Source: Candidatus Azotimanducus sp. (GTDB taxonomy: Bacteria; Pseudomonadota; Gammaproteobacteria; Pseudomonadales; Azotimanducaceae). Taken from it: a stretch of DNA of 64,000 bases. Positions within the stretch are counted from its first letter, which is position 1, and each line of letters begins with the position of its first letter. Below are positions 32,509-59,202 of this stretch, in pieces. Where the stretch lies: assembly GCA_965220185.1 (NCBI GenBank), contig OZ244807.1, positions 2,578,956 through 2,642,955 on the forward strand. Reading direction: 5' to 3'. The translations under genes and the position numbers were made by a program. Under the pieces are notes generated by a model. That model searched no databases. It was not told the DNA's origin and was given only the letters and a program-made list of their open reading frames with translations.

Positions 32509-33174
32509 ATGACACGTTCACCCCCCCCCCCCCCCCCCCTCACTAAATTAGCAACCTTCTTTCTGCTGGCAGTGCTTGCGGCACCGCTAGCGGCGCAGAC
32601 GACCGTCACCAGCGGCGGGCGAGACGGTCCGACCACTTGCATGGGTGAACAACAGGAGGTCAATGCTACGGCTTTCGACATCACGAGCATAACAACAAGC
32701 CTCATCAGGTACACGACTCCGGCTGTCACATGGGGCCAATACACCGGGCGGCTCGGCGATCTCTCAGCACCTATAAGGGCCAGTGTGTATGCCGCTCTTT
32801 ACAATGCCAAAACTCAGGCAAGAGTAGGCCAGGCGAGTTTAGGTGACATATCAAGCACGCGGAACATTAGTGCTCGAAGTACACCACTAGCCAGAACAGT
32901 TTCTGCGAAAACTTCCTATTACCTAGAAATTAACGCGGCTGCGACAGGCTCCATTCCGAAGCAGGTGTTCGCGAGACGCTGCTTCATGACCGGCGGCACC
33001 TACACCATGAATGTCGCCCCTGGAACTGAAGGCCGGAGCAGCGGGTGCTTCTCGATCAGCCCCTTTACCCAACAGGATGTCCGCAACTGCTGGTGCGGGC
33101 GCAGGAACAACCTGCCCCTATTCAGCTCAACACAGGGCAACACCGATTGGCACAACATGTGGGGATGCCGGTAG
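32509..33174 (+). CDS. Small secreted protein, poly(C)-leader family member A (tract in frame)
   Basis: ATG 32509 has GGAG 9 nt upstream. The product begins MTRS-PPPPPP-LTKLATFFLLAVLAAPLAA/QTTV, a signal peptide. The mature part is Cys-containing with no recognised domain. The track ORF starts at GTG 32500. Confidence 0.7.
   Translation: MTRSPPPPPPLTKLATFFLLAVLAAPLAAQTTVTSGGRDGPTTCMGEQQEVNATAFDITSITTSLIRYTTPAVTWGQYTGRLGDLSAPIRASVYAALYNAKTQARVGQASLGDISSTRNISARSTPLARTVSAKTSYYLEINAAATGSIPKQVFARRCFMTGGTYTMNVAPGTEGRSSGCFSISPFTQQDVRNCWCGRRNNLPLFSSTQGNTDWHNMWGCR
32521..32539 (+). repeat. Homopolymeric C19 tract
   Basis: Counted directly: 19 consecutive C between A32520 and T32540, within codons 5-11 of the gene. 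Confidence 0.95.
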
Positions 33175-34193: not shown

Positions 34194-35429
34194 GTGTTCA
34201 GTCGTTTGATGCGCCAGTTCAACCCCACCGCCCTTCAAGCCTATATCGATGAACGTGACCGCCAGTCACCGCTGTTTTTCACAGGCCGTCAAAACGAGAT
34301 TGGCATGGCACAAGTGACATTTCACAATGTACAAGCCGGAAAAACACAAGGGAACACCGTCGTTTTTCAAGGTGCACCCGGTGCAGGCAAAACCGCATTG
34401 CTCGACCACCTGCAAAAAACGCTACAAGGCGAATGCGATACCGCGAAATTGAAAGCGGCTTCAGTACGACGCCCACATACCGCATTGCTTGAAGTGCTGA
34501 AGCAACTCAACCCGAAACAAGCCAAGAAAATCAGAAAAGGTCGTCATGTGCGACACCGATCTGGTTTGAATACCCCCTTGGAATTAGGACGGGACATCAC
34601 CACAACCGACAATCCGAAATCGATCAGCACAGTCGAAGAACTGATGGCATTACGAAAACGTAAAAAGCCATTGCTCTTGTTCCTTGACGAAGCACAAAAC
34701 GCCAACGGCGATGAGCCTGATGGAACAAGCTCAATTCTTCAGGAACTCCATGAAGGGGACGTCGGAAATGTCGCATTGATTGCGGGCGGGTTGTCTGATA
34801 CGAGCACAACGCTCAAATCCCTTGGCATCTCAAGACTCGCATCCGATAGCAAAACGACCTTGCAACCACTCGGCGAAGCGCATGTACGAGAAGCACTTGA
34901 TGCGTTCCTAGCGCACACACCGTTCGGCATTGATTGTCACGGGCACGATACATCTGCCCTGCAACAACTCGTTGTGAACGAATCTTTTGGGTGGCCACAA
35001 CACCTCACAAACGCACTGCGTTCATTGGGCGAAGAATTGATTCGGGTAGGCGGACGACTTGCCGAATGCGACCTGCACGCGGTGCAGCAGGCATCACAGG
35101 CTCGCAGGGAGTCGTATTACGGCGAACGCGCAGAAGGTATCAGCTCACATCTACTTCGAGCGGTCATTCAAACCGTCCCCCGAAACGGGACCGTGTCGTC
35201 TGAGGCGGTGAAAGACGCGATTGCCGAGGCGTATCAAACCAGACCGATTATGGAAGATGAACTACCCCGAAAAGAGGCGTGGCGACACCTCGTGCATCGC
35301 GGCATCTTGGAACCGGACGCACACACTGACCAAGTACGTGTGCCGATTCCGTCCATGCACGACTACATCGCCGAAAGAACACGGTCACAGACACAAGAGA
35401 CGCCCGCAGAATCAGACCTTGGGTATTGA
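34194..35429 (+). CDS. P-loop NTPase (ORC/Cdc6- or AAA_22-like), paralogue of 55806..56954
   Basis: 411-aa ORF with FFTGRQNEI, Walker A QGAPGAGKTALL and Walker B LLLFLDEAQ. The motifs SFGWPQHL, SYYGER and VPIPSMHDY are shared with the paralogue. The start is GTG 34194 or ATG 34209. Confidence 0.8.
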   Translation: MFSRLMRQFNPTALQAYIDERDRQSPLFFTGRQNEIGMAQVTFHNVQAGKTQGNTVVFQGAPGAGKTALLDHLQKTLQGECDTAKLKAASVRRPHTALLEVLKQLNPKQAKKIRKGRHVRHRSGLNTPLELGRDITTTDNPKSISTVEELMALRKRKKPLLLFLDEAQNANGDEPDGTSSILQELHEGDVGNVALIAGGLSDTSTTLKSLGISRLASDSKTTLQPLGEAHVREALDAFLAHTPFGIDCHGHDTSALQQLVVNESFGWPQHLTNALRSLGEELIRVGGRLAECDLHAVQQASQARRESYYGERAEGISSHLLRAVIQTVPRNGTVSSEAVKDAIAEAYQTRPIMEDELPRKEAWRHLVHRGILEPDAHTDQVRVPIPSMHDYIAERTRSQTQETPAESDLGY

Positions 35430-42437: not shown

Positions 42438-44078
42438 ATGAGCACGAATTTCCACTTGGCCAATCTCTTTGAAACCGTCGCCGACGCCTACCCGGACCGC
42501 GCCGCCATCATTGCCTGCCACGAGCACCGGCCAACGGACGTGCGCACATGGGGCGAGCTTGACGAGCGCGCATCGCGCATCGCAAGCCTGCTCGTTGAGT
42601 CGGGACTCAAGCCGCAGTCCAAGTTCGGCATCTATATGCGCAACCGCGCTGAGTACATGGAAGCGCATCTCGCAGGATTCAAGGCGCGCATGGTGCCGAT
42701 CAATGTCAACTACCGCTATCAAGCCGAAGAGCTTGTCTACCTGCTCGACAACGCCGACGCCGAGGCGGTCTTCTTCCAAGAGGAGTTCGCGCCCCGCATC
42801 ACGGAAATTCGCGAGAAACTGTCGAAGGTCAGGACATATGTGCAGGTGAACGATGATGGCACCTCGCGGGCAGACTGGGCACTGGCGTATGAAGCGGCGC
42901 TCGCGAGCGCCAGTCCGATGGCGCGCATCGAGCGACCGAGCTCCGATGTCTACATGCTCTACACCGGCGGCACCACGGGCATGCCGAAAGGTGTCATGTA
43001 TTCGCAAGGCGAGTTCACCGCCCGCCTGAGCCTCGGTCTGATGCTGCGCGGCGTCGCACCACCGACAAGCCTTGATGAAGTGCCCGGACGAATCGAACAA
43101 CTGGCGGGCGTTGAAGCGCAGAACGTGAGCCTGTGCGCCTGTCCCCTGATGCACGGCACCGGCATTTGGCTCGGCCATATCGCGGTCGCATATCTCGGCG
43201 GCACAACGCTCACCATGTCGCACCCCCGTTTCGATGCCGACACCTTGTGGCAACTCGCCGAAGAGCACGCTGCCACGGACATTGTCATCGTCGGCGACGC
43301 CTTCGCCAAGCCCATGCTCACGGCGCTGCAAAGCGCTGCCGAAGGCGGCCACCCTTACAATATCAGCAGCGTCAAACGCATGATCTCAAGCGGTGTCATG
43401 TGGAGCCGCGAAGTCAAGGATGCCCTGCTCGAGTTTGGCGAAATGTACCTGATGGATGCATTTGGCTCATCCGAAGGCGGCATGGGCATGTCCATCTCCG
43501 CACGCGGCGCGGCAGCCGAAACCGCGAAGTTCGCGCTCAACCAGGGCGTCAAAGTCTTTGATGAAAACGACGAGCTGATCGAACCTGGCTCAGATGCGAT
43601 TGGCATGGTCGGCCTCTCCGACGGGGTGCCGCTCGGCTACTACAAGGACGAAGCCAAGTCGGCGAAGACGTTTCGTGAGATTGACGGCGTTCGCTACAGC
43701 TTCCCCGGCGACTTCGCCAAGGTCGAAGCAGACGGCTCGGTGACATTGCTTGGCAGAGGCAGCAACTGCATCAACACCGGCGGCGAGAAAGTGTTTCCGG
43801 AGGAAGTCGAAGAAGCCTTGAAACGCAACCCGGATGTGCTTGACTGCCTCGTCGTTGGCGTTGCCGATGAGCGTTTCGGACAGCGCATCGTCGCTGTGAC
43901 GAGCCTTGCCGAAGGGTCGAGTCCGACGGCCGATGAGATTGTCGCTGCGACCAAGGCGCACCTGTCCGGCTTCAAGCTGCCAAGACAGGTCATATTAGTC
44001 GATCAAGTGCAGCGCGCGGTCAACGGCAAGGCCGATTACGCTTGGGCAAAAGACGTGGCGGAAGCGGCCGCCGGGTAA
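42438..44078 (+). CDS. Acyl-CoA synthetase (AMP-binding, FadD3-like)
   Basis: 546-aa ORF with YTGGTTGMPKGV, GSSEG and GRGSNCINTGGEKVFPEEVE. Confidence 0.88.
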   Translation: MSTNFHLANLFETVADAYPDRAAIIACHEHRPTDVRTWGELDERASRIASLLVESGLKPQSKFGIYMRNRAEYMEAHLAGFKARMVPINVNYRYQAEELVYLLDNADAEAVFFQEEFAPRITEIREKLSKVRTYVQVNDDGTSRADWALAYEAALASASPMARIERPSSDVYMLYTGGTTGMPKGVMYSQGEFTARLSLGLMLRGVAPPTSLDEVPGRIEQLAGVEAQNVSLCACPLMHGTGIWLGHIAVAYLGGTTLTMSHPRFDADTLWQLAEEHAATDIVIVGDAFAKPMLTALQSAAEGGHPYNISSVKRMISSGVMWSREVKDALLEFGEMYLMDAFGSSEGGMGMSISARGAAAETAKFALNQGVKVFDENDELIEPGSDAIGMVGLSDGVPLGYYKDEAKSAKTFREIDGVRYSFPGDFAKVEADGSVTLLGRGSNCINTGGEKVFPEEVEEALKRNPDVLDCLVVGVADERFGQRIVAVTSLAEGSSPTADEIVAATKAHLSGFKLPRQVILVDQVQRAVNGKADYAWAKDVAEAAAG

Positions 44079-47019: not shown

Positions 47020-50000
47020 TCACCAGCGCAGCGCGATATCAAACCCGATGCCGTGCTCAGCTGCGGCCGCACCGCCTTCCCTGCGGGTTGCCGTGAGACC
47101 AACCGACAGGTCGGGCGCATTCACGGCCTCCGGTGCCAGTCGCCAGCCGATGCTGTAGTCGCGCCATAGCTGGGAGTGCCCGAACCCGATCTGCGGGCTG
47201 GCGGTGAAGCGACCGCCGAAGGCTGCGAAGCCCCAGCCCGCCTGCATCGACCAGCGCCCTGCCGCCGCGTTCGCCGCAAGGCCCTGCGTGCGGTGCTCTA
47301 GCGACGCCGACGCGAACAGGGCATCTAGCCCTCCTCGCGACAAGCCGCCATAGTCCTGTCGGAGGCTGAATACCGGCCCCCTGCCCGTCGTCGAGTCCGG
47401 GTCGTAGGACAGCGAGACGGAAACGCCCGAATCCTCGAAGCCGCTGTCCTCGTGCGTCACGAGCGTGCGTCCTGAAACATCAAGCGCGAGGCCAAGCGAC
47501 GGCGCGGTCCAAGCGAATCCACCGCCTATTTCCGCTCCTAGGCCGGTCTCGGCGTCGCCGCCGTCATGGCGCAGGCCCGCTTCCAGCCTAGGAACGATCC
47601 CGGCACCGTTCGCCAGCGCCATCCGCCAGCTGCCTTCCAAGCCGAACCTGAACCCGGTCACGGTGGTATCCGATGCCGAAAGGCCCTGCACCTCATCCGA
47701 AGAGGTCCGCGTCCACAGCGCGTCCGACACCACCGACAGCCCTGCGCCGCCAACGGATAGCAGTTCGCCCCGCAAGCCCGCAGCCGCCATGTGCCAGCGC
47801 GTGTCCGCAGAAAGATCCTCGCCAGCCCCTGTTTTCAGGCTCACTTCGCCTTCGCCAAGGCCCGCCGCGCCCCATATCCTCAAACGCTGCGAAAGCCGCG
47901 CCGCCGCGTAGGGAACCGCCGATGTCAGCGTCGCCTCAACGTCGCCAGCGCCTACCGCAAGGCCGCACGGCGCCGCAGCCTCCGCGCACTCCGGGTTGCC
48001 GGACAGGGGTGCGATGCCTGAATCGTGGTAGCTGCCCTCGCTCGCGCTGCGCACCAGCGCCAGACCTGCCAGCCAGCCGTTGCGGGCGTAGTCCGCGCCC
48101 AGTAGGCCCGTCGACACCTCGCCACCTAGCGACAGGGAGTCCTCGCGACCGTCAAAGCGAGCGTGCGAGGCGCGACCCCAGAACGCCACACTGCCGCCCG
48201 AAGCGTCGCTCTCGCCAGTCAGCGAGAAGTTCGACCCAGCCAAGGCATCGCGCAAGTCCATTGCTTCGGAACGCACCGCCGCGGGTTGCCTCGCCAGCTC
48301 GCCGTAGCCGTAGACTCCGAGGCGCGGCGTCCCGCGGCCTGCCGCCGCCCCGAACGGCGCACTGGCGTCCGCGCCTATTTCCGGGGACGGGCCGAAGCCG
48401 AGTGCACGGCCTGCGAAGCTGCCCTGCATTCCCGGCGCGCGCTCCGCATCGATACGGTCAGCAATGCCGTCGAGTGCCTGTTCCGCCACGGCCCGACCGA
48501 AGCGGGCTAGATACGCCCCCGGTAGCGCGCCGTCATTCGTGATCGTGCCCGTGGCCACTCCGTCGGCGACGGTCACCTCAAAAGTCTCATCGTGCCCCAC
48601 GACCACCAGGTGAAGCACCACCTCGAAGGTCTCACCATCGTCGTTGTGCGCATCGCGCAATGTCGAGACCGATATCTTCTTCTCGGTTTCCCCCTTGCGG
48701 AAGGTGGCCATCGACAACCGGGCACCTTTGTAGTCCACGCCTTCCGTCGCCGATGCCGGCGATGTCTCCCGCGTCTGCCAGAACACATGGGCTTTGCCCG
48801 GCGAGGGCGCCGAAAGGCGCATGATGAATTCCATCGCGGTGCCCTCATCCGCCTCGGCGTCGTCCACCGAAACCGTCAGCGGCACCTCGGCGGCCAAGGC
48901 CGGCGCCCGCTGTGCCTCGACCGGATCGTCGTCGTCCAAGATGTCCACCGCCAGCGAGGACTGCGTACCCACCGTATAGCCGTCCCCTGCGTTCAGCGTC
49001 AAAGTCACCGAGCCGTTCGGCTCGTCCGCGCTGTCGCCCACAGTCGCTACCGTCAGCGTCGCGCTGCCGGTCGCAGGGATGGTCACCGTGCGGTCGCCAG
49101 TCGTCACGCCGTAGTCGCCCGCCGCCGTTACCGTCACGCTCACCGCAAGGCTCGACGCCGGCGCTGGCGCCGCCGTCAGCGTGAAGGTGGCATCGCCGCC
49201 CTCGGTGCCGCCGGAGGCCGCCGTGATGTTCACCTCCGGGGGTTGCGGCGCCGGTTCTTCGGCCTGCTGCCCAGCGGAAACGGTGCACTTGGACGAATCC
49301 CCACCGTCGCACGCCGCCTTGCGCTCAAGCTCCGTCACCACTGCAACCCATCGGTCCCAGCCCTTATCGACATAGCTCTGGGCCTCGGTCACCGTCATCG
49401 GCTCGTCGTCGCCCTTCTCCTCCCCGAGCGCGATCAGCACCCGCACCCAGCGGTACGAATGCAGCGAGCCGTGTTGCGTTTCATTCAGCCACTCCCGGAT
49501 ATTCGCCACAAGTTCCGCGTTCGGCACGAAGGCGGATGCTGGTGCTAGCGCCTCCTGCTTCTTCAGCGCCGCAATCACTTCTGTCCAGCGGTTGCTCTGC
49601 GCGGTGTCCTGTTGAGCGATCCCCTCCGCCTCGCTAGAGGTCATCGGCGTCAGGTTAATAAGGTCGACCTTGATCGGGCCCAATGCCTTCAGCACCCGCT
49701 TCCAGCGAGTTACGCACTCCGAACTGCACGAGGTCTCGCGCGTCCAGCCGCGGATCCGCGTCACCAGATCCACCTCGTCGTCGTCAATAAACAGCGTGTG
49801 CCACGACACAAGGCCGAGGTCATAGTGATCGGTATCCGTCAGGATCAGCTTCACCGTCTCCAAGGGCTCGTATGCGTCATCGTCAATCATGGTCACCGGA
49901 ATGTCCACATAGGTGGCATCCTTGGCCACTGCGACCGTGTCCGCCACCGTGAAGTCCGCATTCCTCGTCGCCGCCCACTTGGTGTCGCCCAACGTGTACT

Positions 50001-52188
50001 CGAGCGTCAGCGATGCGGCCGGGGCCGGGCTGAAGTTGACCCGCACGTTGTGCGTGCCGCCAGCCTCGTTCGCACTCGACGAGGTCGACTCGAAGCTCGC
50101 CACTGGCACCACGTCGTTGTCCGACACCGCCACGCTCGCCGAAGCGGAACTGCCCACCGTGTAGCCATCGCCGGAGGTCACGGCGGCATCGATCGAGCCG
50201 TCCGCCTCGTCGACGGCGTCGTCGTCGGTCGCCACCGTGAAGTCCGCCGTGCCGCCCGCGCCCACCGTCACCGTGCGCGTGCCCGTCTCGCCCGAGGCGG
50301 CGAAGCTGCCCGTCTCGGATACCGTCACCGACACCTGAATGTCCGAAGCGGGCGCCGGCGTCGCCGTCAGCGTGAAGGTGGCATCCGCACCCTCCGTTAC
50401 TGGCGAGCCGCCGGAGATGCTAATCTCTGGAGTCTGCGGCACCAGTTCGGACCGCTGCCCGACGGCGGGGATGCATGCCTCAAGGCGCTCTAGCTCCTCG
50501 CGCACCTCGCGCCAGCCATCCCACGCCTGCTCCCCGACTCGCGCCTCCGCCGACGTGTAGGGCTGCAGAGTCGCGTGCGTCTCCTCCCCGAACGCGATCA
50601 GCACGCGCAGCCAGTTTTCGCCGTGGTTGCGCTCCGCGCGCCCGCGGTTCAGTTCGTAGTAGCCGCGCACCTTCTTCACCAGCTCCGCCGAGGTCGCCGT
50701 ACACGCCAAAGGTGGCACAACCGAATCCAACAGGGCTGGCGCGACCGGGTCGTCGTCGTCCAAGATATCCACCGCGAGCGAGGACAGCGCGCCCACCGCA
50801 TAGCCGTCCCCCGCGTTCAGCGCCAGCGTCACCGAGCCATTCGGCTCGTCCGCGTCGTCGTCCACGGTCGCCACCGTCAGCGTTGCGCTACCGGTCGTGG
50901 GGATCGTCACCGTGCGGTCGCCAGTCGTCACGCCGTAGTCGCCCGCCGCCGTCACCGTCACGCTCACCGCAAGGTTTGATGCCGGCGCTGGCGTCGCCGT
51001 CAGCGTGAAGGTGGCATCGCCGCCCTCGGTGCCGCCGGAAGCTGCCGTGATGTTCACTTCCGGGGTTTGCGGCACCGGTTCGTTCTGTTGCCCGGGGGTG
51101 CCGCTGAGAGCGCTCCCGCAGGCTTCCAATCGCTCCAGCTCCGCGCGCACCGGACGCCAGCCCGACCTCCATATCGCCTCGCCCGCACGGGCCTCGGCCA
51201 CCGTGTAGGGCTGGAGTGTGGCGTGCGTCTCCGCACCGAAGGCAATCAGCACCCGCAGCCAGTTCTCGCCGTAGTTGCGATCCGCGCGGTTACGGTTCGC
51301 CTCGTAGTAGCGGCGAACCTCCTGCACCAAGTCAGCCGAGGTTGCGGGGCAGGATCGATCGTTGTCATACACTCGAACATATCGCAGAGTTTCCGTTTGT
51401 TTTAAGTAATATTTAGAGTTAGAAGATAGCAGGAGTTCGACAACAATGTCGTCGTAACCCTCGCGGGCGGGCACATCGTCATCCAAGGTAGACATCGAAA
51501 AGGTGATCGAGGACTGTCCAGCCGGGAAGACGACGCACTTTGTTCCTTCATCCTTCTGCGCAAGGAAGTTGCCATTGCCGTAGCGCGAGTCCCGCAGATG
51601 AAGGCAGACTTGGAAGCTCTCCTTCGGAGCCTGGCCCTCCGCTTTGATGGTGAAGTCCACGGTACCGCCTTCGTCAACCCAAGTGTGGTTCCAGTAATCA
51701 GGTATCTCCGGCGCTTCGCTCGTGAGGCTCAAGATGGGGCGGTCGCCTGAGTCGTTGTCCTTCACCACTATCCATATGTAAGGCCTCCAGCCGTTACCGG
51801 AAAAGCCGGCACGGGTGCGTAGCGGCTTCGTGCGGCCAGTGTACGGCGTCACGCCTATCCGCCTGTCATTCTCATCCACTTCGTTGTCGACCGTGGGGAC
51901 GCTTGCAGGAAGTTCGCGCGTGCCAGCCGGTATGGTGTAGTTGATGAATCCACGGCCATCTTCGATAAGCACGGGCACCACCAAGTCCACCTTCTGCACC
52001 GGCGTGACCCGAAGGGTGAAGGTCATAGGCTCGCCTTCCGTGACTGCGGGACCGGCCTTGATCTCAATCTTCGGGAGGTCCCAGAAACTGACTTTGGCGC
52101 TAGCTGCCGGCGCGAGGGCTGCCAGCAGCGGCAACCAGAGGAGGACGGCAAGAATGCCAATGCGGGAGAAGCTTCTTTCGCTCATCAT
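47020..52188 (-). CDS. Giant Calx-beta repeat autotransporter (about 1720 aa)
   Basis: The probable start is ATG 52188 (MMSERSFSRIGILAVLLWLPLLAALAPAASA, with AAGG 7 nt upstream); the track ORF starts at GTG 52227. The passenger has Calx-beta-like units ending ..ILDDDD, ..VSDND and ..MIDDD, and four helical modules. The C-terminus is an autotransporter barrel (...GFRFGLEGSWRM...LRHDGGDAETGLGAEIGGGFAW...GIGFDIALRW). Confidence 0.9.
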   Translation of the reverse strand: MMSERSFSRIGILAVLLWLPLLAALAPAASAKVSFWDLPKIEIKAGPAVTEGEPMTFTLRVTPVQKVDLVVPVLIEDGRGFINYTIPAGTRELPASVPTVDNEVDENDRRIGVTPYTGRTKPLRTRAGFSGNGWRPYIWIVVKDNDSGDRPILSLTSEAPEIPDYWNHTWVDEGGTVDFTIKAEGQAPKESFQVCLHLRDSRYGNGNFLAQKDEGTKCVVFPAGQSSITFSMSTLDDDVPAREGYDDIVVELLLSSNSKYYLKQTETLRYVRVYDNDRSCPATSADLVQEVRRYYEANRNRADRNYGENWLRVLIAFGAETHATLQPYTVAEARAGEAIWRSGWRPVRAELERLEACGSALSGTPGQQNEPVPQTPEVNITAASGGTEGGDATFTLTATPAPASNLAVSVTVTAAGDYGVTTGDRTVTIPTTGSATLTVATVDDDADEPNGSVTLALNAGDGYAVGALSSLAVDILDDDDPVAPALLDSVVPPLACTATSAELVKKVRGYYELNRGRAERNHGENWLRVLIAFGEETHATLQPYTSAEARVGEQAWDGWREVREELERLEACIPAVGQRSELVPQTPEISISGGSPVTEGADATFTLTATPAPASDIQVSVTVSETGSFAASGETGTRTVTVGAGGTADFTVATDDDAVDEADGSIDAAVTSGDGYTVGSSASASVAVSDNDVVPVASFESTSSSANEAGGTHNVRVNFSPAPAASLTLEYTLGDTKWAATRNADFTVADTVAVAKDATYVDIPVTMIDDDAYEPLETVKLILTDTDHYDLGLVSWHTLFIDDDEVDLVTRIRGWTRETSCSSECVTRWKRVLKALGPIKVDLINLTPMTSSEAEGIAQQDTAQSNRWTEVIAALKKQEALAPASAFVPNAELVANIREWLNETQHGSLHSYRWVRVLIALGEEKGDDEPMTVTEAQSYVDKGWDRWVAVVTELERKAACDGGDSSKCTVSAGQQAEEPAPQPPEVNITAASGGTEGGDATFTLTAAPAPASSLAVSVTVTAAGDYGVTTGDRTVTIPATGSATLTVATVGDSADEPNGSVTLTLNAGDGYTVGTQSSLAVDILDDDDPVEAQRAPALAAEVPLTVSVDDAEADEGTAMEFIMRLSAPSPGKAHVFWQTRETSPASATEGVDYKGARLSMATFRKGETEKKISVSTLRDAHNDDGETFEVVLHLVVVGHDETFEVTVADGVATGTITNDGALPGAYLARFGRAVAEQALDGIADRIDAERAPGMQGSFAGRALGFGPSPEIGADASAPFGAAAGRGTPRLGVYGYGELARQPAAVRSEAMDLRDALAGSNFSLTGESDASGGSVAFWGRASHARFDGREDSLSLGGEVSTGLLGADYARNGWLAGLALVRSASEGSYHDSGIAPLSGNPECAEAAAPCGLAVGAGDVEATLTSAVPYAAARLSQRLRIWGAAGLGEGEVSLKTGAGEDLSADTRWHMAAAGLRGELLSVGGAGLSVVSDALWTRTSSDEVQGLSASDTTVTGFRFGLEGSWRMALANGAGIVPRLEAGLRHDGGDAETGLGAEIGGGFAWTAPSLGLALDVSGRTLVTHEDSGFEDSGVSVSLSYDPDSTTGRGPVFSLRQDYGGLSRGGLDALFASASLEHRTQGLAANAAAGRWSMQAGWGFAAFGGRFTASPQIGFGHSQLWRDYSIGWRLAPEAVNAPDLSVGLTATRREGGAAAAEHGIGFDIALRW

Positions 52189-52289
52189 CAATACCTTTTC
52201 GATTCGGCCTATGTGTGGCAGCGCCACTATGGGTCAAATGATACACGCCTATCACTCATCCTGAAAAACCAGACGCAATGTTTCATTTT

Positions 52290-52389
52290 GGGAATTACGT
52301 AGCAAAATCAGCAACGATCTCGCCCGTCGTTTGACGCTTCACAGGCAGGGCAACCCCGCTGCCTCTGCTGATTTTGCTACGTAATTCCC
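52290..52389. repeat. 100-bp element with perfect 24-bp terminal inverted repeats (MITE or structured RNA candidate)
   Basis: GGGAATTACGTAGCAAAATCAGCA (52290..52313) is the exact reverse complement of 52366..52389. The 52-nt core contains a further GGCAG/CTGCC stem. Confidence 0.8.
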
Positions 52390-52461
52390 TCTCCTTTCTT
52401 CTTCGCCAGAACGTCACAATCCGAGAAACGAACCAGCTCCTATATGAGCTTTACTCTAACT

Positions 52462-52506
52462 ATGACTTGTCTAAACATGACTTGTCTAGACATGACTTGA
52501 CGAATA
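52462..52506 (+). repeat. Three tandem 15-bp direct repeats upstream of the 52593 ATPase gene
   Basis: The three units are ATGACTTGTCTAAAC, ATGACTTGTCTAGAC and ATGACTTGACGAATA, with a period of 15 nt. Confidence 0.8.
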
Positions 52507-52592
52507 GCGCAGCGCGGCGCATACTTCCGGCATCACTTCAGTGAGAGAATAAATGAGCCATCCTGCCCCGCGACCAGCACACAGATTACGCC

Positions 52593-53999
52593 ATGTCTGA
52601 GTTCATCGGCCGCAGTTCGGAACTCGATGCGCTTGAGGCGGCATTTGCGTCCAAGCAATCCGAGTTCATTCCGGTGTATGGCAGGCGTCGAGTTGGCAAG
52701 AGCGAGCTCATCCTACAGTTCATGAAAGGCAAGCCCGGCATCTATTACCTTGGCCGGCAATCACCGAGCGGCCTGCAGGTGCGCGAATTTCTTATGGAAG
52801 CGGCGCACACTCTCAACATGCCGCTACTCGCCGAACTCGGCATCAAAGATTGGCGCAAGGCGCTGACAACTGTTGTCGATCAGTGGACGCTCACGCATCC
52901 CGACTCGAAACTGATATTGGCTCTAGACGAATTTCAGTGGATCGCGGCGTCGGAGTCCGGTCTCGTCGCGGACTTGCAGCACAACTGGGATCGTCAATGG
53001 AGAACCAGCGGCAATGTGCTGCTGTTGCTTTGCGGCTCCTACATCGGATTCATGGAACGGGAGGTGCTCGGTCAATCAAGCCCGCTATTCGGTCGCCGCA
53101 CGGCGCAAATTCATCTGCGTCCATTCGGTTACTTGGAAGCCGCCGAATTTCATTCGAGATGGTCGCTCGTTGACCGAGCGTGCGCCTACTTTCTCGTGGG
53201 CGGACTGCCGCAGTACCTGCTGTGTCTCGATGACCGTCTTTCTGTGAGAAGCAACATTCGTCAAAACCTGCTTGACGAATATGCGCCGCTCTTTCATGAA
53301 CCTACCTTTCTGCTGCGAGAAGAGCTACGCGAGATCGCGCCGTACCACGCCATTTTGTTCGCAATTGCCGGTGGAAGCAGTACTGTGCGGGCGATTGCGG
53401 ACACCACTAGCCTGCCAGAGCGCAACCTGCACTACTATTTGCGGCAACTGTTCGATTTAGGCTATGTGCAACGGCGCTACCCGCTTGATGGCCGACGCGC
53501 AAATCCGAAGCAGTTGCGTTTTGCGATTCGAGACCCATTGCTCCGTTTCTGGTTCCGATTCGTGTTCCCCAACAGCAGCATCATCCGCAGCGCTGGCCCG
53601 TCCCGCGCCTTCAACGAGCGCATCGCACCTTCGCTCGATGCCTGGTTTGGCAATGGATTCGAACATCTCTGCCGCGAGGCCTTGCCACTCATTTATGCCC
53701 ATGAGGGCGTGGCCGCGGGGTTCGAAGTTGGTGAGTATTGGAACTCGAAAGCACAAATCGACATTGTCGGCCTGCGCGACGACAATTGGACCGACTTGGG
53801 AGAATGCAAATGGGGCCAGTGGGGAAAGATACGTTCGCCAGCCGCGTTGGAAGCGGAACTTGAGCGCAAGGCAGAATTGTTTCCGAACAATCGTGGCGCA
53901 ACGCTAGGAAAGCGCTATTTTGTGCGCCGCAAGCCGACAGGACGCCAAAACACGCCGAACTGGTATGGGCTAGAGGATCTGTACGCACTGTCTCTCTGA
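52593..53999 (+). CDS. ATP-binding protein of the Arch_ATPase (PF01637-like) type with a DUF234-like C-terminal domain
   Basis: 468-aa ORF with FIGRSSELDAL, Walker A YGRRRVGKSE and Walker B LILALDEFQW. The C-terminal segment AQIDIVGLRDDNWTDLGECKW is typical of the DUF234 end. Confidence 0.8.
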   Translation: MSEFIGRSSELDALEAAFASKQSEFIPVYGRRRVGKSELILQFMKGKPGIYYLGRQSPSGLQVREFLMEAAHTLNMPLLAELGIKDWRKALTTVVDQWTLTHPDSKLILALDEFQWIAASESGLVADLQHNWDRQWRTSGNVLLLLCGSYIGFMEREVLGQSSPLFGRRTAQIHLRPFGYLEAAEFHSRWSLVDRACAYFLVGGLPQYLLCLDDRLSVRSNIRQNLLDEYAPLFHEPTFLLREELREIAPYHAILFAIAGGSSTVRAIADTTSLPERNLHYYLRQLFDLGYVQRRYPLDGRRANPKQLRFAIRDPLLRFWFRFVFPNSSIIRSAGPSRAFNERIAPSLDAWFGNGFEHLCREALPLIYAHEGVAAGFEVGEYWNSKAQIDIVGLRDDNWTDLGECKWGQWGKIRSPAALEAELERKAELFPNNRGATLGKRYFVRRKPTGRQNTPNWYGLEDLYALSL

Positions 54000-54056
54000 G
54001 GAAGAGCCTCCGAAGGGTGAACCGGCGTTCCGCTCGCATGACTGCGTGAACACGCC

Positions 54057-54084
54057 TTGACAAAAAGCGAAATCTGTTTATTAT
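54057..54084 (+). promoter_or_regulatory. Near-consensus sigma70 promoter for the 54119 gene
   Basis: TTGACA (54057..54062), a 16-nt spacer, then TATTAT (54079..54084). GGAG at 54109..54112 lies 6 nt before ATG 54119. Confidence 0.6.
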
Positions 54085-54118
54085 GCCTGAGCATCATTCA
54101 GCTTATTTGGAGAAAGCT

Positions 54119-54683
54119 ATGAAACGATTACCCCCCCCCCCCCCCCCCACCCCCCCCGCTCGCTAAGTTAGCGGCGTTCCTGTTGCTGACAGTATTTGCT
54201 CTGCCTGCATGGGGGCAAGCAGAGTATTTTGCACCCAGGAATACAAGCGCTGTCGCGAAAAGTCAGAGCGACGAGCAACTCTGGGGCGATAGAGTCTGTT
54301 TTTACGCAAGGATAATCGAAATCTCAGATTCAAGCGCAGTAGGGACCGTGCAGTTCTACTACCCTTTAGGTGGCGAATCAGACTCTCTTGCTCCGACAGC
54401 CCCAGAACAAGATGTTGAGATCTGGACCTTGGCACTTAATACAACGGACTATCCAGCCAATCAGTTTAGGGGCAACAAGGCTGGATATGATCATCTTGGA
54501 GGGATCCATCTCATATCGGACAACGATCAGGTGAAACTCTGGAAGCCCTCCTCCCATTACGGCGTCAACTGGGTGCGGCTGGAAATGGATACCCCAAAAC
54601 TCAGGGTCCCTGGTCAGCAACTCAGTCCCGGTTCACCACCTACTTCCGGAAGCGCATGTCGGAACGAGGGTTGGGGATTTTAA
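54119..54683 (+). pseudogene. Small secreted protein, poly(C)-leader family member C, 1 nt out of frame within the tract (phase-OFF state or homopolymer length error)
   Basis: As assembled, ATG 54119 reads MKRLPPPPPPTPPAR and stops at TAA 54164..54166. The 166-aa ORF body (track 54183..54683) is open from 54123 in the +1 frame. Removing one C gives MKRLPPPPPPPPPLAKLAAFLLLTVFALPAWG/QAEYF..., a signal peptide homologous to member A. Confidence 0.65.
54131..54157 (+). repeat. Interrupted homopolymer C18-A-C8
   Basis: Counted directly: C at 54131..54148, A at 54149, C at 54150..54157. Confidence 0.95.
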
Positions 54684-54715
54684 TTTGAGTAGAATCGGCA
54701 CATCGCAGATTGAAC

Positions 54716-54743
54716 AAAAGGCGGCCTTCGGGCCGCTTTTTTT
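54716..54743. terminator. Rho-independent terminator, potentially bidirectional, between convergent genes
   Basis: The sequence is AAAAG-GCGGCC-TTCG-GGCCGC-TTTTTTT: a GC stem with a tetraloop, flanked by an A-run and a T-run. Confidence 0.75.
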
Positions 54744-54834
54744 CATGGTGAGGAATTGAATTTTCGCTTGCGCAACTTCCTGCGGCGCAGACTCCTAGTG
54801 CTCTGAAGCAGAACCTTGAAACACGAATCTGGAT

Positions 54835-55692
54835 TCACTTGCTTGCGAATTCGAGCACCTCGTCCACGCGCCGGCGCAATTGATCAATGCCGCCCACGCC
54901 AAGCGGAACGATGAGCTGATCGACGCCAAGTTCCCGATAGGCTTGGAAACTAGCCCGATCAATGGATTCGGCATCCGGACCAATGAACAATTCGATCTCA
55001 CCTTGCGGCCTGCCCGAGCGCCGCAGGTGGCTCTTGAGCCGCTCGATGCCTTCGGCCGCTGACGACGGACTGCGGTTGAAGCCGTACCAGCCATTCCCGT
55101 GCGAGGCCACGCGAGCGAAGGCGGCCTCGGATTCGCCCCCAAAGATGATCGGCGGGTGCGGCTGCTGCACCGGATTCGGGTTGGCGTAGCAGGGCTGCAG
55201 CTGGTATGTCTCGCCCTTGTACTCAGAGACGCCGCTTGTCCACAGCGCGCGCATGACTTCAATGTACTCAATTGTCCGCTTGCCGCGATCAGCGAAGCTC
55301 ATTTGCAAGTTGTCGAACTCCTCCTCAAGCCAGCCAATGCCGATGCCAAAGTCAAAGCGCCCGCCCGACAGATAGTCAAGATCGGCCACCACGCGCGCCG
55401 TGTAGACGGGATTGCGCTGCGGCACAAGGCAGATGCCGGTGCCGAGGCGCAGGCGCTCGGTCACGGCGGCGGCGAACGTCAAGGCCGAGAAAGGGTCGAG
55501 AATGCCTTTCGGATTGCCGGGAATCTTGCCGTCCCGCGCATACGGATAGCGCGAAGCGTATTCAGGAAAGAACAATACATGCTCCGGTGCCCACAATGAG
55601 TGGATGCCTGATTCATCGAGGTATCTCGCCGCCTCGATGATGTACTCGCGCGTCGTGAAATGCCCGAAGGCCATGTGTGCTCCGATTTTCAT
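54835..55692 (-). CDS. LLM-class (luciferase-like) flavin/F420-dependent oxidoreductase
   Basis: From ATG 55692 the protein begins MKIGAHMAFGHF...SLWAPEHVLFFPEY, followed by GRFDFGIGIGWLEEEF. These motifs are typical of luciferase-like monooxygenases. The track ORF starts at 55740. Confidence 0.8.
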   Translation of the reverse strand: MKIGAHMAFGHFTTREYIIEAARYLDESGIHSLWAPEHVLFFPEYASRYPYARDGKIPGNPKGILDPFSALTFAAAVTERLRLGTGICLVPQRNPVYTARVVADLDYLSGGRFDFGIGIGWLEEEFDNLQMSFADRGKRTIEYIEVMRALWTSGVSEYKGETYQLQPCYANPNPVQQPHPPIIFGGESEAAFARVASHGNGWYGFNRSPSSAAEGIERLKSHLRRSGRPQGEIELFIGPDAESIDRASFQAYRELGVDQLIVPLGVGGIDQLRRRVDEVLEFASK

Positions 55693-55805
55693 GAGGCTGC
55701 ACCTTGCTGTGTGTTGGCTGTGTTGGCAGTGTATCCGCAATGGCAGTCAGGCGGCACACAAGTGTCGGTATACTTCCATGCGGGCATCAAAGCTCGCGCA
55801 CTGAC

Positions 55806-56954
55806 ATGACATTTGATACAGAACTTGCCCGAAAGCTTACATTTGACGACCGTGATGTGGCGCCATTCTTTGCTGGGCGGCAAGCGGAAATCAAGTCATT
55901 TGAGAGCGCCCTCGAATCGGCAGAAGAAAAACCGCAAGCGGTCTTCCGTATCTATCAAGGCGCACCTGGGTGCGGAAAAACCTCATTGGCCTTTCATCTC
56001 CCCAAGATGACAGCGGAGACCACGATATTCACTCGCTTCTCCGAGACCGACAATTTTGACAAGGCAAGTTTGGCAGTCGCCATCCATGATGCGATCGCCG
56101 CCGAAAACAAACCTGCCGAACTCGTGAAAGAAATGATGGAATTGGCCCTGTCTTTGATTGGCAAGGGCGAAACGGCTCAGATGATCAAAGCAGGCAGAGT
56201 GAAGCGTGTCCCTAAGAGCGCCCAGGTGGTCATTCATATTGATGAAGCGCATTCCATGGGCGAGAAGTTCGACGGCTTTCTCAAAGCGCTTCACGTCAAG
56301 GGGGTTGGCTGGCCGTGCGTCGTGCTGCTGACAGGTCTCAATCAAACCAGAAGTCGCGTGGTCGGCATCAAGGGGCTCTCTCGTTTAGCGAAAGATGTGA
56401 CCATCAACATGGGCGCAATGGCGCATGAGGAATGTGCTGCATCGACGATGGATATGCTCGATGCCATTGGCGCCATAGGCAATCGCGAAGGCGCCGCGAG
56501 CCGAACCGCCTCTCTCTCATTCGGCTGGCCGCAGCACCTGACGACCGCGCAGGAAGCGTTGCGCGACGAACTGATCCGTGAAGAAATTGCAGGCGACCTC
56601 GGAAAAGCCGACTTTGCTCGCATCAAACGTCAGTCAGACGAAAGTCGTGCCAGCTATTACAAATCGCGGATTGAACATGGACTGCCCTCGCAGAACAAGG
56701 CGCTGACGCTGCGTATGCTTAATGCGCTGAGAACCCATCAAACATGCATGGACATCCGGGAGCTAGGCGAGCGGTGCGCGCAGACAATCGAATCCCATCC
56801 TCAGACCGGACGTTTCCAAATCCTCCCCGACCAAGGATTGGATTTCGCAGAGGCGCTTGTGCAAAAAGGTGTTGTTGTCGAAACTGACCGGGGGTTTGAA
56901 ATCGCGATTCCTTCAATGGGCGATTGGGCGGCAGACTTGTCAAACACCGCCTGA
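55806..56954 (+). CDS. P-loop NTPase (ORC/Cdc6- or AAA_22-like), paralogue of 34194..35429
   Basis: From ATG 55806 the protein has FFAGRQAEI, Walker A QGAPGCGKTSLAFHL and Walker B VVIHIDEAH, plus the shared SFGWPQHL, SYYKSR and IAIPSMGDW motifs. The track ORF starts at 55704. Confidence 0.8.
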   Translation: MTFDTELARKLTFDDRDVAPFFAGRQAEIKSFESALESAEEKPQAVFRIYQGAPGCGKTSLAFHLPKMTAETTIFTRFSETDNFDKASLAVAIHDAIAAENKPAELVKEMMELALSLIGKGETAQMIKAGRVKRVPKSAQVVIHIDEAHSMGEKFDGFLKALHVKGVGWPCVVLLTGLNQTRSRVVGIKGLSRLAKDVTINMGAMAHEECAASTMDMLDAIGAIGNREGAASRTASLSFGWPQHLTTAQEALRDELIREEIAGDLGKADFARIKRQSDESRASYYKSRIEHGLPSQNKALTLRMLNALRTHQTCMDIRELGERCAQTIESHPQTGRFQILPDQGLDFAEALVQKGVVVETDRGFEIAIPSMGDWAADLSNTA

Positions 56955-57043
56955 CCATCGAGACGCGGGAATGAACGCCCTTGACTTCACCGCCAAGATT
57001 ATGGAATCTTAGCAACACGCGCGATTGATCGCGCTTCACATCA

Positions 57044-57126
57044 CCTGAGGGGCGGCGAGAGCCTGAGATGCCGACAATCGGCAGACCCTTGGAACCTGAA
57101 CCAGATAATGCTGGCGGAGGAACAGG
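57044..57126 (+). promoter_or_regulatory. TPP (THI-box) riboswitch
   Basis: Conserved elements appear in order: GGGGCG, CTGAGA (57063..57068), ACCCTTGGAACCTGAACCAGATAATGCTGGCGGAGGAA. The P1 candidate is CCTG (57044..57047) pairing with CAGG (57123..57126). The SD GGAGG (57116..57120) of the downstream gene lies inside the aptamer 3' side. Confidence 0.85.
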
Positions 57127-57129
57127 CCT

Positions 57130-59202
57130 ATGTTCAAAAATATCCCTATCGTGCTGACTGCTCTGCTGGTCGGCGTTTTGCCTTACCACGGTCTTCTTGC
57201 CGAGGATGATCAGCGCGTCGAGGAAATCACCGTCTACGGCGAGCTGCGCGAATCGAGCATCCTTGAGCTGCCGACGAGCGTGACCGTGCTAGACGACGCC
57301 TTGATTGATGCAAGAAGCGCGACGCATCTTGAAGAGATCTTGGCCGCAAGCGCCAACATCAACCTTGCGAGCGGCGCTTCGCGCGCGCGCTTCTTTCAAA
57401 TCCGCGGGGTTGGCGAGCGCGGTCAGTTCATTGAGCCGCTGAATCCGTCGGTGGGACTGCTCATCGACGGCGTTGATTTCAGCGGCATTGGCGGTGCTGC
57501 CACCCTCTTTGACATCGAGCAGGTGGAGGTGTTTCGCGGGCCGCAAGGCACGCTCTACGGGGCCAATGCGCTCGCCGGGCTTATTTCTCTCAAGAGCCGC
57601 GCCCCGACATTCGAGACCAACGGACGCCTTCGACTGGAAGCTGGCGACCACGGCACCCAAGGGCTCGCGGGCGCTTACGGCGGCGCACTCTCAGAGCATG
57701 TCGCTTTTCGCACATCCCTCGCCCATCACGCGAGCGATGGGTTCATTGACAATACCTTCCTTGGCGCAGACGACACCAACAACCTCAGCGAGACAACTTG
57801 GCGAGGCAAGCTGCGCTTTGATCTCTCAAGCGCCGCCCGCTTTGATGTCGGCCTCGGACTGGTCTCGCTCGACAATGGCTACGATGCCTTTTCGCTTGAC
57901 AACGACCGACGCACGCGCTCGGACAGTCCGGGCGCGGATACGCAAGACAGCGTCTTCGGAACGTTGAAATTCACGCGTCAAGGACATGCGTTCGACACGG
58001 AATTGAGCCTCGCGGCGCTCCGCTCGGACTCCGAATACGGCTATGACGAAGACTGGACTTTTGACGGATTTCATCCGTCGGGCTACGCATCGACCGACCA
58101 GTACAATCGCGAACGCGAGACGTGGAGTGGCGAGATTCGGCTCACTTCCAGCGAAGAAGGCAGTCTGTTCGGAGGGCGCACGGACTGGGTGGCTGGCCTG
58201 CGCGCGCTCAATCAAGCCGTCGATTTCGTGCGCGTCTATACCTATGCGGATGCTGATTTCACAAGCGACTTCGAGATTCAGCGCATCGCGGGCTACGCGC
58301 GCACCGAAACCATCCTCTCGCAGCGGGCGAGCCTGACGCTCGGCGTGCGCCTCGAATCGCACGAGTCGCGCTACTCGGATTCAGCCGCACTCGCCTTCAA
58401 TCCCGACGAAAATCTTTTCGGCGGGCGCCTTGCCTTGGATTACGCGCTTCGCGAAGACCTGTTCGCCTATGCGAGCCTCGCGCGCGGCTACAAGGCGGGC
58501 GGTTTCAATACTGATGGCACGCTTGATGCCGCGCTTCGAGAATTCGATGCGGAGTACCTTTTGAACTATGAACTTGGCCTCAAGGGCTCGTGGCCAGCAC
58601 TGGGATTAAGCCTCCGCCTCGCCGCCTTCTGGATGCAGCGCGATGATGTGCAGATCGATAGTTCGATCACGCTGGTGAGAGCGGATGGCAGCAGCGAGTT
58701 CATCGACTTCACCGGCAATGCTGCAGAAGGCGTGAACCAAGGGATTGAAGCTGAGCTCGACTGGGCGCCGAATGATCGGCTGAGTCTCGCAGCGAGCTTG
58801 GGCCTCTTAACTAGCGAATACGAGAACTACGTCAATGCAGAGGGCGAGGACCTTGATGGCCGAGAGCAGGCGCACGCACCGGGCTATCAATACCACCTCG
58901 CTGCGTATATCGACATCACCGAAGGGCTATCCCTCAACCTGACGCTTGAAGGCCGAGACAAGCACTTCTTCTCGGACAGCCACAATGCCAAGTCGAGCGC
59001 CTATGACCTCGTTCATGCATCGCTTGCCTACCAGTGGCGGGACTGGACGATTCGCCTCTGGGGACGGAATTTGGGCGACGAGGACTACTTTGTGCGCGGC
59101 TACTACTTTGGCAATGATCCGCGCGATGACTACGAATCCAAAGCCTATACGCAACTCGGCGAGCCGCGCCGCTTCGGTGTGACGGTGAAAATTGAGATTT
59201 AA
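57130..59202 (+). CDS. TonB-dependent outer-membrane receptor (thiamine or thiamine-precursor uptake candidate)
   Basis: 690-aa ORF with a signal peptide, a TonB-box-like EEITVYG, the plug motif FRGPQGTLYGANALAG and a C-terminal barrel ending FGVTVKIEI. It lies directly behind the TPP riboswitch. Confidence 0.9.
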   Translation: MFKNIPIVLTALLVGVLPYHGLLAEDDQRVEEITVYGELRESSILELPTSVTVLDDALIDARSATHLEEILAASANINLASGASRARFFQIRGVGERGQFIEPLNPSVGLLIDGVDFSGIGGAATLFDIEQVEVFRGPQGTLYGANALAGLISLKSRAPTFETNGRLRLEAGDHGTQGLAGAYGGALSEHVAFRTSLAHHASDGFIDNTFLGADDTNNLSETTWRGKLRFDLSSAARFDVGLGLVSLDNGYDAFSLDNDRRTRSDSPGADTQDSVFGTLKFTRQGHAFDTELSLAALRSDSEYGYDEDWTFDGFHPSGYASTDQYNRERETWSGEIRLTSSEEGSLFGGRTDWVAGLRALNQAVDFVRVYTYADADFTSDFEIQRIAGYARTETILSQRASLTLGVRLESHESRYSDSAALAFNPDENLFGGRLALDYALREDLFAYASLARGYKAGGFNTDGTLDAALREFDAEYLLNYELGLKGSWPALGLSLRLAAFWMQRDDVQIDSSITLVRADGSSEFIDFTGNAAEGVNQGIEAELDWAPNDRLSLAASLGLLTSEYENYVNAEGEDLDGREQAHAPGYQYHLAAYIDITEGLSLNLTLEGRDKHFFSDSHNAKSSAYDLVHASLAYQWRDWTIRLWGRNLGDEDYFVRGYYFGNDPRDDYESKAYTQLGEPRRFGVTVKIEI

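Follow-up and report, generated by a model that had tools for sequence, protein, structure and literature searches.

The stretch of DNA under study, called here the window, was a 64,000-nucleotide (nt) part of contig OZ244807.1 (assembly GCA_965220185.1) of Candidatus Azotimanducus sp. It was found to contain two leader sequences with long runs of cytosine, named locus A and locus B. Locus B (54057-54743) contained a predicted promoter, a Shine-Dalgarno (SD) sequence, an ATG codon, a poly-C tract, a signal-peptide region, the coding region of a small protein (protein B) and an intrinsic terminator (Table 1). Because promoter, SD, ATG and terminator were all present, the locus is, judged by these signals, a self-contained transcription unit for a small, predicted secreted protein. 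The tract was in the 5' part of the open reading frame (ORF), 10 nt beyond the ATG, and the codons AAA, CGA and TTA lay between them. The spacing GGAG(G)-N6-8-ATG was present upstream of the tract in almost all related leaders. The promoter was called by a scan for which 1.1 promoter-like sites were expected per 1.5 kb in shuffled sequences. The hairpin scan reported the terminator on the minus strand, and its T-run on the plus strand was read directly.

Table 1. Coordinates of the features at locus B and locus A of the window and of the tandem repeats in related contigs
Feature	Position	Strand	Remarks
Predicted sigma-70-type promoter, TTGACA-N16-TATTAT	54057..54084	+	TTGACA 54057-54062, spacer 16 nt, TATTAT 54079-54084; 11/12 consensus positions
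SD sequence GGAG	54109..54112	+	6 nt 5' of the ATG; read from the sequence
Start codon, then signal-peptide n-region MKRL	54119..54121	+	
Poly-C tract C18-A-C8 (candidate switch), encoding poly-proline	54131..54157	+	C18 54131-54148, A 54149, C8 54150-54157; one C too long, body at +1
TAA at which the ATG frame ends as assembled (OFF)	54164..54166	+	after 15 codons
TAG closing the third reading frame	54169..54171	+	within the conserved GCTAAGTTAGC motif
Signal-peptide remainder in the body frame, LAKLAAFLLLTVFALPAWG	54159..54215	+	predicted signal peptidase I cut after AWG, before Q
Mature protein B, beta-rich	54216..54683	+	155 aa + stop; homologues P0001-P0004, P0149
Intrinsic terminator, GCGGCC-TTCG-GGCCGC then T7	54721..54743	+	hairpin scan and direct reading
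Locus A, same leader type	32509..33174	+	C19 (32521-32539), in frame (ON); cargo unrelated to B
13-nt repeats CTCATACCGGGGC, CTCTTCACGGGGC or CTCTCACCGGGGC	L046:3719-3892, L036:3823-3892, L042:3817-3888, L087:1842-1976		

As assembled, the frame of the ATG at 54119 encoded MKRLPPPPPPTPPAR and then ended at the TAA codon. The +1 frame was open from 54123 to the stop codon at 54681-54683 (186 codons), and the body after the tract (54159-54680, 174 codons) was free of stops, the OFF allele being without a second lesion. When one C was removed, translation gave a pre-protein of 187 amino acids (aa), MKRLPPPPPPPPPLAKLAAFLLLTVFALPAWG/QAEYF..., in which the interrupting A ended a CCA proline codon and the whole tract stayed poly-proline. 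An earlier examination of the window (the original prediction) had listed the promoter, GGAG, ATG, C18-A-C8 tract and stop codon, a body open from 54123 in the +1 frame and a reading frame restored by deletion of one C, and all of these were found as described. Its body of 166 aa was indeed an open frame, but that length corresponds to the stretch from the first TTG (54183). On inspection, MKRL-(P)n-LAKLAAFLLLTVFALPAWG/Q showed the basic n-region, the hydrophobic h-region of 10-15 residues and the small residues at -3 and -1 of a Sec signal peptide, and no lipobox Cys. The Sec features and the cleavage site were called by eye (-3/-1 rule), together with alignment to other leaders, which terminated in A-x-A/Q by inspection. 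The TAA and the TAG, both within 14 nt past the tract, formed a stop trap for the two wrong frames.

Only three C runs of 8 nt or more were present in the window, all of them within the leaders at 54131-54157 and 32521-32539. A C18 run is expected by chance about 2.5e-5 times in 64 kb at the composition of the window (arithmetic estimate), and the C runs of the two leaders are far beyond chance. Locus A encoded a 221-aa beta-sandwich protein (protein A) with six conserved Cys. The homology noticed in the original prediction between the nucleotides following the two tracts was confirmed (16 of 21 nt identical), and the leaders were similar from the tract through the hydrophobic core. The two loci had been called paralogous, which holds for their leaders, but the mature proteins were without similarity in blastp. 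The further proposal of two contingency loci with a common leader, one ON and one OFF, is supported by the comparative data below, in which all three frame states and intact OFF bodies were found.

Tract length differed among otherwise nearly identical copies. L018, L112 and L113 represented one syntenic locus and were 99.0-99.7% identical across 2.6 kb; the sole indel among them was the tract, which contained C13, C12 and C16, respectively. L112 and L113 were separate contigs from the same sample; as co-assembled haplotypes they hint, indirectly at most, at mixed lengths in one population. Leaders with the same n-region DNA were found to contain different tracts (C9/C19/C33, C16/C18, C12/C13 and C9/C23), and in one case C8 (ON) was found against C9 (OFF, in four paralogues). 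Protein clusters of at least 90% identity contained members with 3 versus 7, 4 versus 5 and 5 versus 7 prolines, and the same clusters also held N-terminally truncated gene calls starting inside the signal peptide. These comparisons indicate that in the leader family the tract length evolves faster than its surroundings.

The stop trap was a property of the family. Stops in both wrong frames were present within 21 nt past the tract in 54 of 66 leaders (82%), with a median distance of 12 nt, whereas at random control positions in the same genes both frames were closed in 4.7%, with a median of 96 nt. The motif was GCTAARTTAGC in one leader type and ATAAGTTAAG in another, each providing one stop per wrong frame, and it used the leucine codon TTA although the window contained 60% G+C. 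From this conservation we infer selection on out-of-frame translation, that is, that the OFF frames are really used.

Protein A had 137 homologues, and one database protein was 100% identical to it. A scan of representative genomes for the A family gave 131 loci; 80 of these were kept, and one genome contributed as many as 10 paralogues to them. Tracts were compared in the 58 loci in which C8-C23 lay 6-33 nt beyond an SD-ATG. Of these copies, 11 were in frame, while 30 had the body at +1 and 17 at +2; the counts include paralogues, which are not independent samples. The start codons of leaders were picked by SD proximity; at L018 the gene caller had taken an upstream ATG without SD. Of the 47 OFF copies, 45 had an intact body, with about 210 codons open downstream of the tract. 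Since neutral evolution to a dN of about 0.2 should have left several stops in each pair (estimate), the intact bodies argue for selection on them. With related copies collapsed, the +1 excess (p = 0.08) and the deficit of ON copies (p = 0.058) were weak; the bias in frame states was not built on as a signal, the +1 excess not being significant. In alignment, the six Cys and motifs such as RRCFMTGG were invariant. The median pairwise dN/dS of the family was 0.55, with values up to about 1, and it was equal for ON and OFF copies.

The AlphaFold2 model of protein A (predicted local distance difference test, pLDDT, 85) contained a beta-sandwich and Cys-rich C-terminal helices. Its Foldseek matches in the PDB were only generic beta-sandwiches of immunoglobulin (Ig), fibronectin type III or C2 type (best E 3e-3, query template modeling score at most 0.31), and an assignment of function from structure was rejected for this reason. 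No Pfam or NCBIfam family was found for proteins A and B and three further cargo proteins.

Protein B belonged to a small family. Four close homologues were 72-80% identical, and an exhaustive HMMER search with the B body gave 5 representatives only, including a distant homologue (P0149, 35% identity). The leader of L001 contained C10 and was in frame, those of L002 (C13) and L003 (C14) had the body at +1, and that of L004 contained C14-T-CC and was in frame. The original prediction had suggested checking whether orthologues differ only in tract length, which does not describe proteins of just 72-80% identity. It had also named extra inactivating lesions in orthologues as the mark of an ordinary pseudogene; one orthologue, L004, contained a second frameshift in its body. 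Residues 21-56 of protein B gave a weak phmmer match to repeats of a Big_3_5 Ig-like protein, with no Pfam match above the gathering score that would place B in Big_3_5. Its AlphaFold2 model (pLDDT 41, from an alignment of 5 sequences) was of low confidence and unusable for a fold search. In the Paracoccaceae MAG (metagenome-assembled genome) OZ244919, the B homologue of L002 and a 2-oxoglutarate-Fe(II) oxygenase gene (L002:3134-6124) were located between rplP (L16) and rpmC (L29), and this insertion within a ribosomal-protein operon is an unusual site.

A separate assembly from sample ERZ25072152 (L085, 5x coverage) was 100% identical to window positions 51040-56999 and contained the same C18-A-C8 tract at locus B. 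The only differences between L085 and the window clustered in about 300 nt (50738-51039) of a gene on the minus strand (47020-52227) encoding a 1735-aa repeat protein with Calx-beta domains; they could reflect variable repeats, or repeats that were collapsed when the 5x contig was assembled. No plasmid match was found for 52000-56000 by megablast against plasmids.

Taken together, these observations make it quite probable that locus B is a genuine slipped-strand translational ON/OFF switch which is currently OFF. In such a switch, the length of the poly-C tract, which separates the basic n-region of a Sec signal peptide from its hydrophobic core, would set expression. Slippage at homopolymers is an established mechanism of contingency loci, and slipped-strand mispairing during replication would add or remove C's here. 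The full pre-protein would be made only if the ATG at 54119 were in frame with the CTC at 54159, for which the first block would have to be C17 or C20; translation in either of the other frames would halt at the TAA or the TAG. In-frame changes of length would alter only the number of prolines, and this region of the signal peptide would tolerate them. The majority state of the sequenced population would be OFF, with one C too many. We infer from the sequence features slippage, its reversibility, secretion of the product and a role in the interaction with a sponge host.

Several points weigh against a switch. The case is built on comparison of assemblies and not of reads, and the sole direct comparison at locus B, that of the window with L085, showed the same length, which is stability and not variation. 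With a run as long as C18, a systematic bias of high-fidelity (HiFi) reads or of polishing could have produced one wrong length in both assemblies, and the tract, being broken by the A at 54149, may be less mutable. The second frameshift in L004 is an additional lesion outside the tract, and by that measure alone the high dN/dS of the A family would be compatible with relaxed constraint.

The strongest of the rival explanations is a homopolymer consensus error: nearly every cell would have a tract of in-frame length (C17 or C20) and express the gene constitutively, and the OFF state would be an artefact of long-read assembly and polishing. We consider such an error unlikely. The related records of the European Nucleotide Archive (ENA) had OZ accessions and contigs named ctgN_NNx_l or _rc, which fit metaMDBG output, and published sponge genome notes use a PacBio HiFi and metaMDBG pipeline for such MAGs (PMC12859430). 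The names of other related records (JAPO..., NODE_..._cov) were in the style of SPAdes, as is usual for Illumina assemblies. Indel errors of HiFi reads occur above all in long homopolymers, among which C18 has to be counted. The same length in L085, from a separate sample, argues against a random error, although a systematic bias could yield equal lengths in two assemblies. The OFF state was most frequent at C8-C9 (21 of 23 A-family loci), where the HiFi consensus should be reliable, and OFF copies were also present in the Illumina/SPAdes MAGs (3 OFF, 1 ON). In-frame calls were found at C19, C21 and C23 as well, so long tracts are not always miscalled, and the conserved two-frame stop trap implies that wrong frames are really translated.

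Recoding, in which the extra C is bypassed by RNA polymerase slippage or by a +1 shift of tRNA-Pro on CCC-C, so that tract length would tune expression and not switch it, was judged a shade less likely still. The sequence CCC-C is known to be prone to +1 shifts, and poly-proline stalls ribosomes; elongation factor P and the m1G37 modification (1-methylguanosine at position 37) are reportedly involved in +1 shifting on CCC-C. Transcriptional slippage is likewise said to rescue frameshifted homopolymer genes in insect endosymbionts. The +1 state was the commonest in the A family, but its excess over the 17 copies at +2 was not significant. Programmed sites hold one frame arrangement across orthologues, whereas here alleles and paralogues were in frame, at +1 and at +2. 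The zero-frame stop was located at least 2 codons past the tract, neither a stop nor a rare codon directly followed the slippery run, and no Rfam element was found at or near the locus. Recoding might nevertheless be a source of leaky expression from OFF alleles. A decaying pseudogene, in which an ordinary frameshift mutation has inactivated a gene on its way to loss, is very improbable: the extra frameshift of L004, the dN/dS near 1 of many close pairs in the sister family and the out-of-frame majority of copies would fit decay, but the 174-codon B body has no stop, the near-consensus promoter, SD and terminator are kept, 45 of 47 OFF A copies remain open at a divergence where neutral decay should have given several stops, the six Cys and RRCFMTGG are invariant, and in the comparison of L018, L112 and L113 the lesion was always confined to the tract.

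The leader of the proposed slipped-strand switch was not confined to families A and B. The cassette was found on at least 5 unrelated families of small, predicted secreted proteins, and the MAGs with copies of it belonged to several orders of Alpha- and Gammaproteobacteria. The same SD-ATG-poly-C-hydrophobic leader was present ahead of cargo unlike A or B at L007:7961 (C11), L020:2286 (C11) and L008:1062 (C33). The tract of the last (L008:1062-1094) was the longest seen and had the body at +1, and its n-region ATGACACGTTCA and 5' cassette were those of locus A of the window. Its cargo belonged to a Cys-rich family (AEQCNASHI...) of 17 homologues, some with poly-proline leaders; many of them were truncated 'MAEQC...' gene calls, and one (P0153) came from the window's own genome. 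Public gene calls starting inside the signal peptide (MLAGPAVAQTTV..., MAEQCNASHI...) were found for P0009, P0012, P0016, P0019, P0150, P0153, P0157-P0160 and others, and at the loci whose DNA was read they were truncated because the leader was out of frame. Such truncation of these genes by annotation pipelines is systematic. In 771 kb, the gene strand contained 84 C runs of 9 nt or more, versus 11 of G, 3 of A and 0 of T. A further candidate family, L003:3800 (C20), was dropped as its downstream ORF looked low in complexity, and all 24 matches of the leader DNA pattern in metagenomes of the Joint Genome Institute (JGI) were chance matches without leader or cargo.

Exchange of these genes between classes is suggested by the A family, in which the mature coding regions of three pairs from Arenicellales (Gammaproteobacteria) and Paracoccaceae (Alphaproteobacteria), namely L025/L038, L025/L058 and L039/L040, had a dS of 0.17-0.27; values this low suggest recent transfer. 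Paralogous AAA_16/AAA_22 ATPases (about 410 aa, 28% identical) were located downstream of both leaders of the window (34194-35429 and 55704-56954). They recurred beside three other loci only (L001, L016 and L033), belonged to no informative family and were rejected as a part of the system; the association may be one of island context rather than function.

A second leader type was found in two Alphaproteobacterial MAGs, in which families A, B (as the distant homologue) and L008:1062 had another leader, MSxxxIRMFPVAML, with no C tract. In the A and B members of these MAGs a perfect 13-nt tandem repeat of 5.4-13.4 copies was located just 5' of the SD-ATG (Table 1). The repeat was read in DNA for the A and B members, and P0161 of the third family was seen as protein only. 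In these MAGs the cargo genes may be controlled by a second kind of repeat, different from the poly-C tract.

The homologues of proteins A and B came almost only from MAGs, labelled Paracoccaceae, Aestuariivita, Arenicellales, Candidatus Poriferihabitans, Pseudomonadales, Rhodospirillaceae and Thiotrichales. The NCBI series of MAGs to which these relatives belong is one that we take to be sponge-derived. Judging from the taxon names, from the genome notes cited above and from this presumed origin, the hosts of the leader, including the organism of the window, are probably sponge symbionts. On balance we lean slightly towards a modular, horizontally exchanged, phase-variable secretion leader, composed of promoter, SD, ATG, poly-C tract, stop trap and signal peptide, which would serve unrelated small secreted proteins (some of them Ig-like) across the proteobacterial classes of sponge symbionts, with the 13-nt repeat as its version in some Alphaproteobacterial MAGs. 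Each cell would then display a random, heritable and reversible subset of the proteins. As the leader is a cassette on many families, a genome would contain several to a dozen independently set switches, mostly OFF.

By analogy, the mechanism is that of a classical translational contingency locus, and its closest parallel is opa of Neisseria, in which CTCTT repeats are present in the signal-peptide coding region at about 11 loci per gonococcal genome. As in the poly-C leader, a repeat in the coding sequence of the leader peptide sets the frame of the mature protein, and both families are multicopy, with a conserved leader, variable mature parts and copies that are mostly OFF and switch singly, in the poly-C leader as a prediction. 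The opa repeat is a pentamer and its cargo consists of outer-membrane beta-barrels, whereas the repeat here is a homopolymer of C8-C33 and the cargo consists of small, soluble-looking proteins that contain Cys or a beta-sandwich. Unlike opa, the poly-C leader serves at least 5 unrelated cargo families across two proteobacterial classes. The hosts of opa are human pathogens, whereas here they are uncultured organisms of MAGs, probably sponge-associated, and the switch is a predicted one. What is new compared with the known systems is the homopolymer tract, the cassette across unrelated cargo, the spread over classes and the host setting.

Other systems resemble the poly-C leader in part. The genes oipA/hopH, hopZ, sabA and sabB of Helicobacter pylori (CT repeats in the 5' signal-sequence region) and the poly-G genes of Campylobacter jejuni likewise contain a 5' repeat with ON/OFF frameshifts, and Campylobacter tracts are typically 8-13 nt, as in most copies here. 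Unlike the poly-C leader, the tracts of Helicobacter and Campylobacter do not belong to a leader cassette that is shared and transferable, and we know of no description of a conserved two-frame stop trap as a family feature. Mismatch-repair status is of relevance in Helicobacter and Campylobacter. The vlp, vsp and vsa genes of Mycoplasma also combine a conserved 5' region and signal peptide with divergent mature regions and are multicopy and phase-variable, but they use a promoter poly-A or site-specific inversion and lipoprotein leaders, whereas the repeat here is translated and no lipobox Cys is present. The 7-bp tandem repeats of hmw1A and hmw2A of Haemophilus influenzae, which lie between promoter and start codon, resemble the leader with 13-nt repeats but differ in unit length; this upstream architecture is absent from the window locus itself. 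Slippage rescue in Buchnera and Blochmannia is alike in the long homopolymers within ORFs of host-associated bacteria and in the intact out-of-frame copies, but their tracts are of A/T, in housekeeping genes and at no fixed leader site, whereas the tracts here are of C, at one conserved position and in three frames.

Most of what is known of contingency loci comes from host-adapted vertebrate pathogens and commensals, whereas the bacteria considered here are uncultured and apparently belong to sponge microbiomes. No account of poly-C tracts or of phase variation in sponge symbionts turned up in a full-text literature search; if the modular reading is true, it would be the first contingency-locus system described in them and a candidate determinant of how symbionts escape from, or modulate, host recognition and phagocytosis. 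If the switching is real, these genes are concrete, testable candidates for the long-standing question of how symbionts vary exposed or secreted proteins toward a sponge host that feeds by phagocytosis, and C-run frameshifts in these MAGs should be neither corrected nor taken to mark pseudogenes. Tract lengths would in that case be directly readable from existing HiFi reads.

Two other features were observed in the window. The sole Rfam match was a thiamine pyrophosphate (TPP) riboswitch at 57038-57139 (RF00059, 69 bits), just upstream of a 690-aa ORF (57130-59202). ARAGORN reported an 84-nt tRNA-Val (CAC) on the minus strand at 43077-43160, inside a long ORF (42438-44078), which is possibly spurious.

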